Shown here piece after piece: positions 3,643 to 3,956 of a stretch of 4,193 bases of DNA. The position numbers were made by a program, and so were the translations under genes. Origin of the DNA: a virus (taxonomy: Duplodnaviria; Heunggongvirae; Uroviricota; Caudoviricetes); the IMG/VR virus record IMGVR_UViG_2700989509_000012, positions 1 to 4,193 of that record; one strand, written 5' to 3'. Position 1 is the stretch's first letter. Every line of letters begins with the position of its first letter. A model generated the notes under the pieces. That model was given only the letters and a program-made list of their open reading frames with translations. It ran no database searches and had not been told where the DNA came from.

Positions 3643-3822
3643 CTAAATGAGCGGCTCTTCGGGTTTGCTTCCGGCTGACTGACTGGCGCTGATTTTCTCT
3701 GCGGCCCTTTTGTCAATCTGCCTGCGCCAGCAATCGCGCACTGCCCTGTACCCACCCGAAAGGAGATACAGCACACAGACCACCGTACAGAAGTACAGCA
3801 TTAACTGGTTCAGAAATGTCAT
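3643..3822 (-). CDS. small single-TMD membrane protein, 59 aa (below the ORF-track size cutoff)
   Basis: ATG 3822..3820 to TAG 3645..3643, translated by hand: MTFLNQLMLYFCTVVCVLYLLSGGYRAVRDCWRRQIDKRAAEKISASQSAGSKPEEPLI. Hydrophobic stretch at residues 3-23, then a basic juxtamembrane segment and charged tail. Weak SD (ACGGAAAG). Family not recognised. Confidence 0.4.
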   Translation of the reverse strand: MTFLNQLMLYFCTVVCVLYLLSGGYRAVRDCWRRQIDKRAAEKISASQSAGSKPEEPLI

Positions 3823-3825
3823 AAT
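3817..3825 (+). promoter_or_regulatory. candidate extended -10 promoter element (TGtCATAAT) for a plus-strand antisense transcript
   Basis: TG at 3817-3818, then hexamer CATAAT at 3820-3825 (5/6 to TATAAT, the conserved A at hexamer position 2 and T at position 6 present). Predicted start near 3832, about 125 nt upstream of the plus terminator. A perfect TTGACA also sits at 3841-3846 but without a good -10 at 17 bp. Confidence 0.25.
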
Positions 3826-3918
3826 TTCTTTCCGTTATTGTTGACAATAAGAACTGTTTTCATTAAAAACCAGAGTACGAAAGTATCGTTCCTTTATTTT
3901 TTCTCCATAGGTATCACC

Positions 3919-3956
3919 ACCGCCAGCGTCCATTCCTGTCGCTGGCGGTTTTTTTT
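3919..3956 (+). terminator. canonical intrinsic terminator oriented for plus-strand transcription
   Basis: Perfect 10-bp stem 3919-3928 (ACCGCCAGCG) pairing with 3940-3949, 11-nt loop, then T8 at 3949-3956. On the minus strand the hairpin is preceded by A8 and followed by UGGUGAUACC (no U-tract), so it is unidirectional for plus. Confidence 0.55.

Follow-up and report, generated by a model that had tools for sequence, protein, structure and literature searches.

What does a strong transcription terminator end when every gene around it is read from the opposite strand? This question is raised by a 4,193-nt stretch of DNA from a virus of the Caudoviricetes (IMG/VR record IMGVR_UViG_2700989509_000012, positions 1 to 4,193; this whole stretch is called the window below), which is the late region of a lambdoid, Shiga toxin (Stx)-type prophage in which every gene lies on the minus strand. 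The terminator points in the plus direction and stands in a gap of 135 nt, which separates the 3' end of a gene for a NanS-p-type sialate O-acetylesterase from the gene for a 59-aa membrane protein of the DUF1378 family. An earlier interpretation drawn from the letters of the DNA (the sequence-only reading) had proposed that the small membrane protein and an antisense RNA over its leader form a module like those of type I toxins and antitoxins (TA). We conclude instead, at a probability of roughly 0.8, that the gap holds a self-contained gene on the opposite strand, with a sigma-70-type promoter and a Rho-independent terminator, for a small RNA (sRNA) that resembles Esr41.

A predicted sRNA gene in the esterase-DUF1378 gap

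The promoter assigned to this gene begins with a -35 hexamer TTGACA at 3841..3846 (plus strand), which was invariant in 32 distinct window-type alleles and is common to the cassettes that occupy the equivalent position in related prophages (sister cassettes). A -10-like hexamer, TAAAAA, follows 17 nt later at 3864..3869 (plus strand); the sister cassettes have the same geometry, with TCAGAA, TGAAAA, TTAAAA or TAGAAA as the -10 equivalent, and TTGACA also serves as the -35 element in the PasA, PasC, EcOnc52-type, EcOnc33 and Esr41 promoters. The arrangement TTGACA-17-TnnAAA followed by a terminator, a pattern which was defined post hoc from the homologues, occurred once in the window versus 0.02 times expected. 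Moreover the promoter motif was found in 43 of the 45 distinct DUF1378-upstream regions collected from IMG/VR, ENA and NCBI loci, and the two remaining regions deviated by one base each, in the -35 hexamer in one case and in the -10 hexamer in the other (type-3 alleles failed the automatic hairpin test owing to their long stem-loop).

Transcription would start at about 3876 (+/-2 nt), because PasC, by its RNA-seq coverage, has its 5' end 7 nt downstream of the equivalent hexamer. It would stop at a Rho-independent terminator at 3919..3956 (plus strand), in which a 10-bp G+C-rich stem (3919-3928 with 3940-3949) is followed by a run of eight U (3949-3956); this terminator is homologous to those of PasC and the EcOnc52-type module, and 2 nt separate its end from the esterase stop codon. 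The product, as judged from Rfam, alignment and fold, is a predicted Esr41-like sRNA of ~81 nt (3876..3956, plus strand), with a folding energy of -22.8 kcal/mol for the 81-nt RNA (z = -4.95 versus shuffles). The plus-strand intrinsic terminator noticed in the sequence-only reading is real and strong. That reading had also been puzzled that the terminator requires plus-strand transcription while no plus-strand gene was evident: an independent unit does appear to end at 3956, but the missing gene is present, in the form of the predicted sRNA.

The promoter had earlier been sought at a different place, in a proposed extended -10 element, TGTCATAAT (3817..3825, plus strand), which overlaps the DUF1378 start codon. 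The letters are there, but as a promoter they stand at chance level and they probably do not drive the sRNA: TGNTATAAT with at most one mismatch was found three times in the window versus 2.5 expected, and the equivalent positions in other alleles (CTCATTATC, CGTCATAGT) are not conserved as an extended -10. The element is explained by coding sequence, because it is the reverse complement of the ATG-ACA of the DUF1378 open reading frame (ORF) together with the A/T-rich spacer of its Shine-Dalgarno (SD) sequence. The RNA start near 3832 that went with it, giving an RNA of ~120-125 nt, has to be moved, as the conserved TTGACA-17-TnnAAA lies 24 nt further downstream and places the start at ~3876. 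The ~71 nt of EcOnc33 likewise fit the TTGACA promoter; they do not fit a start beside the DUF1378 ATG, which would yield at least ~125 nt.

Architecture of the RNA and its likeness to Esr41

In the predicted fold, a 5' hairpin with an ACGA/UCGU stem (3877..3889, plus strand), in which the 32 window-type alleles had no variable column, is followed by a single-stranded, U-rich seed region (3890..3909, plus strand) that was unpaired in both the minimum free energy and the centroid structure. Only two singleton changes fell into the seed region across these alleles, and the substitutions at the top of the terminator stem were linked, compensatory and stem-preserving; the 32 alleles are closely similar, which gives such a test of conservation low power. 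Within the seed region, the core TTCTCCAT at 3901-3908 was identical in eight of eight Esr41-like alleles while its flanks varied. A short second hairpin, GGU-AUC-ACC (3910..3918, plus strand), connects seed and terminator and has its counterpart in the GGGG-UAUU-CCC of Esr41.

Esr41 (RF02676, also EcOnc14) is an Hfq-dependent sRNA of the island SpLE1 of enterohaemorrhagic Escherichia coli (EHEC). When the window was searched with Rfam, Esr41 gave the only notable match, which covered the full model (3880-3956, plus strand; 29.5 bits, E = 0.01); the copies in the prophages Sp5 and Sp15 scored 28-31 bits against the same model and the true Esr41 108.6 bits. Local alignment of the window RNA with Esr41 from the seed through the terminator gave 43 of 57 identical positions (z = 12 versus shuffles), and a bridging allele (L177) shared 51 of 59 positions with the window; the Esr41-like relationships rest throughout on such pairwise alignment statistics. 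The two RNAs have in common the promoter with TTGACA, 17-nt spacer and hexamer, a length of about 74-81 nt, the order of 5' hairpin, single-stranded seed, short hairpin and terminator, an identical UUUUCUCCAU block, and the motifs GGUAU and CCGCC..GCUGGCG(U)n. They differ in the sequence of the 5' hairpin, in the heptamer beside the seed (CAUAGGU in the window, CAUGGGG in Esr41) and in location, the window RNA lying in the esterase-DUF1378 gap of Stx phages and Esr41 lying in SpLE1 near iha. The window RNA is thus most likely an Esr41-like regulatory sRNA of ~81 nt with an Esr41-type build, including the terminator and U-tail to which Hfq usually binds.

Predicted targets and mode of action

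Compensatory mutations have established that Esr41 pairs directly with cirA, chuA and bfr and represses them (Waters et al., PMC5286369). In their SD regions, at about -16 to -6, cirA and chuA (L181, L183) share the 11-nt block CCUCAUGGAGA, which explains why Esr41-type seeds match both. The block is the complement of the conserved seed, and TTCTCCAT is complementary to the AUGGAGA within the cirA and chuA SD regions; the seed UUCUCCAU, complementary to the same regions, is kept in the window RNA, and both Esr41 and the window RNA are predicted to pair there.

Targets were ranked thermodynamically in seed-only runs against a panel of 60 translation initiation regions (TIRs). As a positive control, the Esr41 seed ranked cirA and chuA first and second of 60. 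The window seed ranked cirA first (-19.5 kcal/mol, with the background 1st percentile at -15.2), chuA seventh and bfr ninth, while EcOnc33 and PasC ranked cirA and chuA 27th to 48th. Against the TIRs of the window itself (DUF1378, DUF826, holin, DUF1327, endolysin, Rz and Rz1), the seed paired no better than shuffled seeds did.

Based on these predictions, the RNA is likely to be an Hfq-dependent, trans-acting anti-SD sRNA, and we infer its expression, Hfq dependence and targets for the window allele. In a lysogen, where the late operon is silent, the sRNA would be transcribed from its own promoter and, together with Hfq, would pair in trans with the SD regions of host mRNAs and repress their translation, cirA being the best predicted target and chuA a weaker one. 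Upon induction, oncoming late transcription would shut the sRNA off.

One slot, many sRNA bodies

The window sRNA sits in a slot common to EcOnc33, PasC and PasA, between a nanS-p-type esterase gene and the lysis genes and antisense to late transcription. PasA and PasC of the enteropathogenic E. coli strain E2348/69 (Pearl Mizrahi 2021; Zhu, Shabalina & Storz 2026 preprint) lie between a sialic-acid esterase and holin/lysozyme genes in antisense orientation, and for both of them northern bands of the predicted size, Hfq-dependent stability and targets by RIL-seq (RNA interaction by ligation and sequencing) are on record. Upstream of each sRNA at the E2348/69 loci stand TTGACA and a TnnAAA hexamer with 17 nt between them. 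In the case of PasC (NC_011601.1, 1290909->1290832), 7 nt separate the equivalent -10 from the 5' end and 2 nt separate the 3' end from the esterase stop; PasA occupies the same slot at a greater distance from that stop.

Slot, antisense orientation, -35 hexamer and spacing of PasC and PasA are hence as in the window; they also have a homologous GCCAGCG..CGCUGGC terminator, and the 3' end of PasC abuts the esterase stop as that of the window RNA does. On the other hand, their bodies and seeds are unrelated to the window RNA, the terminator being the only part that aligns (29 of 38 positions in PasC, 14 of 15 in PasA), and the PasA and PasC loci examined are without DUF1378, unlike the window. 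The window RNA accordingly fails the body identity to PasA or PasC at BLAST level by which Zhu et al. define membership. EcOnc51 and EcOnc52 are the EHEC homologues of PasC and PasA, with an approximate mapping for both; the EcOnc52-type module also has its terminator adjacent to the esterase stop, the published EcOnc52 peak being assigned to it approximately.

The EcOnc RNAs come from a catalogue of Hfq-bound RNAs in the Sakai prophages (Tree et al. 2014), in which EcOnc33 was crosslinked to Hfq in five datasets, gave a northern band of ~71 nt and has a Rho-independent terminator. Because the EcOnc coordinates refer to an older version of the Sakai genome and the EcOnc33 peak lies ~100 nt off in the current record, its position was taken from the probe sequence: the EcOnc33 northern probe has its exact match on the antisense strand, within the esterase-DUF1378 gap of Sp6. 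EcOnc33 shares gap, strand and the frame of promoter and terminator with the window RNA, but its body differs, with no significant alignment outside the U-tail (z = 1.3), no UCUCCAU seed and other predicted targets.

One frame was found to hold at least five unrelated RNA bodies: beside the window type and the EcOnc33 type, these include two more that are Esr41-like and one of 100 nt. Identical DUF1378 proteins adjoin unrelated bodies. Cassettes also occur without DUF1378, in E2348/69 PP2 and PP5, in Sakai Sp4 and Sp12, and in SpLE1, where the cassette is Esr41 itself. According to Zhu et al., matches to the Esr41 covariance model are frequent near PasD.

The slot may also hold tandem sRNA modules. 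A PasA-type module followed by an EcOnc52-type module, each with its own TTGACA promoter and terminator, was located in E2348/69 PP2 (L001, 2470-2740) and in Sakai Sp12 (L004, 2920-3190); with two modules in a row, the 236-nt 'minor' PasA species is explained by transcripts that run on from the first module into the second.

A comparable slot exists on the other side of the esterase. The AgvB/AsxR anti-sRNAs are, as is the window RNA, encoded by prophages, convergent with late transcription and present as many alleles at a fixed position, and their conserved 3' part and variable 5' part can be likened to the window slot. They differ in that their slot lies upstream (5') of the esterase, in their shorter length (51-60 nt) and unrelated sequence, and in that they sponge core sRNAs. 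In the prophage of the window itself (NZ_CP027587.1), sRNAs were seen on both sides of the esterase: a convergent pair of a STnc100/PasD-like RNA and AgvB on the 5' side, and the Esr41-like gene on the 3' side. The regions concerned upstream of the window (L180, 7231-7499 and 10000-10324) also include the hokD/sok module treated below.

A conserved position with a sequence free to change is also what a purely cis function allows, and the window RNA might be dual-function or mainly a cis antisense RNA. Its 81-bp duplex with late read-through RNA would then lead to RNase III cleavage, combined with transcriptional interference, and the gene, placed between the esterase and the DUF1378-DUF826-holin-endolysin-Rz block, would be a safety catch on leaky lysis genes in lysogens. 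The slot does lie between esterase and lysis cassette in all cases, whether DUF1378 is present or not; an RNA read from the strand opposite to the late operon necessarily complements the late transcript over its full length; and read-through is plausible, since PR' fires constitutively and its transcripts terminate at tR' (Sy et al.). The seed speaks otherwise: UUCUCCAT is invariant in otherwise divergent Esr41-like alleles, which argues for selection on pairing in trans, as do the target sets of the sister sRNAs from RIL-seq and CLASH (crosslinking, ligation and sequencing of hybrids), and pairing with the local TIRs was not significant. A mainly cis RNA, or a safety catch of this kind, is in our view unlikely. 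We are similarly doubtful of a second, cis role beside host regulation, in which duplex formation and promoter collision would make an antitoxin-like catch on DUF1378 and the pinholin, and of its corollary that sRNA and lysis block would act as a functional type I-like pair with a freely swappable 'antitoxin' body.

Several points weigh against an Esr41-like, trans-acting sRNA gene in the gap. At the promoter, TAAAAA is without the usual conserved T at position 6 and was assigned as the -10 by inference, and the start site is carried over from sister alleles. At the level of the family, 29.5 bits is far below the Esr41 gathering score of 102. The target predictions are thermodynamic only and come from a small panel, and the extended pairing that Esr41 makes is weakened by the G-to-A change that turns CAUGGGG into CAUAGGU. 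The EcOnc list of Tree et al. has no entry in the DUF1378 gaps of Sp5 or Sp15; this absence is weak evidence, because their filter dropped peaks within 100 nt of features. Finally, an sRNA cassette was present in all 45 distinct DUF1378-upstream regions, which would fit a toxin in need of its antitoxin.

The weak -10 is also what would favour the absence of any RNA gene, in which case the hairpin and U-run would serve the esterase 3' end as a backstop terminator or to stabilise its mRNA, and the promoter motif would be fortuitous. This is extremely improbable: the orientation of the terminator is wrong for the esterase, since the minus strand has an A-run before the stem and no U-run after it; the -35 stands at fixed spacing across unrelated cassettes; and RNAs of sister alleles, arising from the same frame, were detected experimentally.

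DUF1378 and the toxin-antitoxin question

The protein for which the sequence-only reading had proposed a toxin role is real. The ORF at 3643..3822 (minus strand; 59 aa, ATG start) is present, as the ORF list, Pfam, synteny and substitution rates agree, and its product has the single transmembrane domain (TMD) and basic juxtamembrane region that had been described: a single hydrophobic segment (Kyte-Doolittle mean 1.85 over residues 7-25; TMD at residues about 4-25) is followed by the basic stretch RAVRDCWRRQIDKR. The match to Pfam DUF1378 was full length (E = 1.2e-38), and phrog_494, which like DUF1378 is a family of unknown function, matched as well. Conservation of the ORF in relatives was also borne out. 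Against divergent alleles (down to 61% identity) the ratio of nonsynonymous to synonymous substitution rates (dN/dS) was 0.14-0.43, and DUF1378 is thus a real coding gene under purifying selection; homologues were found in E. coli and Shigella prophages only, and in every context examined the order was constant, with esterase, a gap of ~135-150 nt, DUF1378, DUF826 and holin. A search of the literature on DUF1378, ECs1210, L0106 and Z1467 returned nothing on function.

Much about the locus does resemble a type I TA module, with DUF1378 as membrane toxin and the plus-strand RNA as cis antitoxin pairing with the 5' leader. The protein is, in its composition, what such toxins are, small, with one TMD and a basic juxtamembrane region, and the window shares with hok/sok and other type I loci a short ORF for a single-TMD protein next to a convergent small RNA whose complement lies further upstream in the mRNA. 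Besides the presence of a cassette in all 45 distinct DUF1378-upstream regions, cassettes were found without DUF1378 and DUF1378 was never found without a cassette, i.e. there were orphan antitoxins but no orphan toxins, as such modules predict; a constant gene order next to the esterase 3' end explains this co-occurrence equally well. The antisense relation proposed in the sequence-only reading holds in part: the predicted RNA (3876-3956) is perfectly complementary to the late transcript at -54 to -134 from the DUF1378 ATG, within the leader, but it leaves uncovered both the ATG and the SD, the likely SD being GGAAAG at 3828..3833 (minus strand; read from the sequence), which lies upstream of the sRNA -35 and outside the predicted sRNA. 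A standby-site effect is still conceivable, and IstR-1 and tisB show that pairing well upstream of the ribosome-binding site can repress translation.

The remaining evidence tells against a toxin. A consensus scan, which cannot prove absence, found no minus-strand sigma-70-like promoter for DUF1378 in or near the gap; the gene belongs to a late operon that depends on Q, immediately before DUF826 and the holin gene, and would therefore be expressed only in cells already committed to lysis, the protein being made only once Q antitermination has switched on late transcription. No match to type I toxin, antitoxin or defence families was obtained for the DUF1378 protein in Pfam, NCBIfam or PADLOC. 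Rfam returned no sok or hok match in the window at E<=1, whereas the genuine hokD/sok module ~5 kb upstream, in the nin region of the same prophage, served as a positive control with a sok score of 111.7 bits. The leader is unconserved, being exchanged among alleles for at least five unrelated bodies beside DUF1378. Furthermore the conserved trans seeds of the sister sRNAs and their validated trans targets explain the RNA without any toxin. The comparison with hok/sok made in the sequence-only reading consequently fails in its particulars: unlike at hok/sok, the RNA lies off the translation initiation region, the ORF is without a promoter of its own, and the window has no mok-like reading frame, no conserved leader fold and no family match. 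The TA reading is not supported, and we consider it very unlikely; we regard DUF1378 as distinct from the sRNA, a small and conserved membrane protein encoded in the lysis-proximal late operon.

Gene context of the window

The esterase gene enters the window with its 3' end at 3958..4193 (minus strand), which encodes a DUF6645 C-terminal domain (Pfam, E = 3e-23) and ends in the stop codon TGA at 3960..3958; in identical genomes the gene is labelled 'DUF6645 domain-containing protein / SASA family carbohydrate esterase'. Downstream of DUF1378 on the minus strand follow DUF826 (3602..3330), an S21-type class II holin (3253..3038), a 329-aa DUF1327 protein, lysozyme and Rz/Rz1. E. coli 2013C-4974 carries a stretch identical to the window, in a prophage with tRNA genes, not stx, upstream of the esterase.

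The 329-aa ORF between holin and endolysin (2044-3033, minus strand) is intact, with an N-terminal DUF1327/YdfR domain, an extension of ~215 aa and a full-length match to phrog_1085; the identical RefSeq genome annotates its first 342 nt only, as a truncated pseudogene. Rz is flanked by two small minus-strand ORFs (455-679 and 1172-1273), namely a 74-aa ORF, which has a partial match to phrog_2571 and is called frameshifted in the identical genome, and, immediately upstream of Rz, a hydrophobic ORF of 33 aa (phrog_6632).

A Fur-box-like palindrome, AAAAATGATAATGGTTATCATTTGC, was found at 228-252, where the lysis cassette has ended and the gene of a DUF1441 (terminase-small-like) protein, which starts near position 30 on the minus strand, has not yet been reached. 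It matches GATAATGATAATCATTATC at 16 of 19 positions, where matches of 14 of 19 or more are expected 0.1 times per shuffled window, and might serve in regulation by iron or belong to the cos region. A second Fur-box-like match, in the spacer of the sRNA promoter (12 of 19), was discarded as too weak, since 17 sites in the window reach that score. EcOnc10 of Sakai Sp12 was considered as a counterpart of positions 1-450 and rejected, because the arrangement downstream of Rz differs.

Distribution and implications

The window-type cassette was identical, apart from the length of the U-tail, in 933W, phi24B and Sakai Sp5, and ~97% identical in Sp15. Phage records with the cassette numbered 233, among them 933W (AF125520.1, 25128-25245) and phi24B; of 5426 complete E. 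coli genomes, 653 carried it, in a median of two copies and at most six. An RNA annotation for it was never present in the phage and genome records checked, the gap in E. coli 2013C-4974 being among those left blank, and literature searches, including searches with strings of the sRNA sequence, found no name for the window allele. The gene is in all likelihood a newly recognised sRNA of a known prophage family, that of Esr41, PasC and EcOnc33, and neither a new kind of system nor a TA module.

For genome annotation, this removes a false toxin-antitoxin call. For the family, the esterase-to-lysis gap emerges as a polymorphic sRNA slot, in which one frame of promoter and terminator houses the different bodies, and the picture drawn for PasA and PasC now extends to loci that contain DUF1378. 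If the RNA is expressed, lysogeny by Stx phages would supply the host with extra Esr41-type regulators, whose predicted sites of action are the SD regions of the iron and colicin receptor genes cirA and chuA; such extra copies could buffer the phenotypes of esr41 deletions, and carriage of a toxin phage would be linked to iron uptake and to sensitivity to colicins Ia and Ib.

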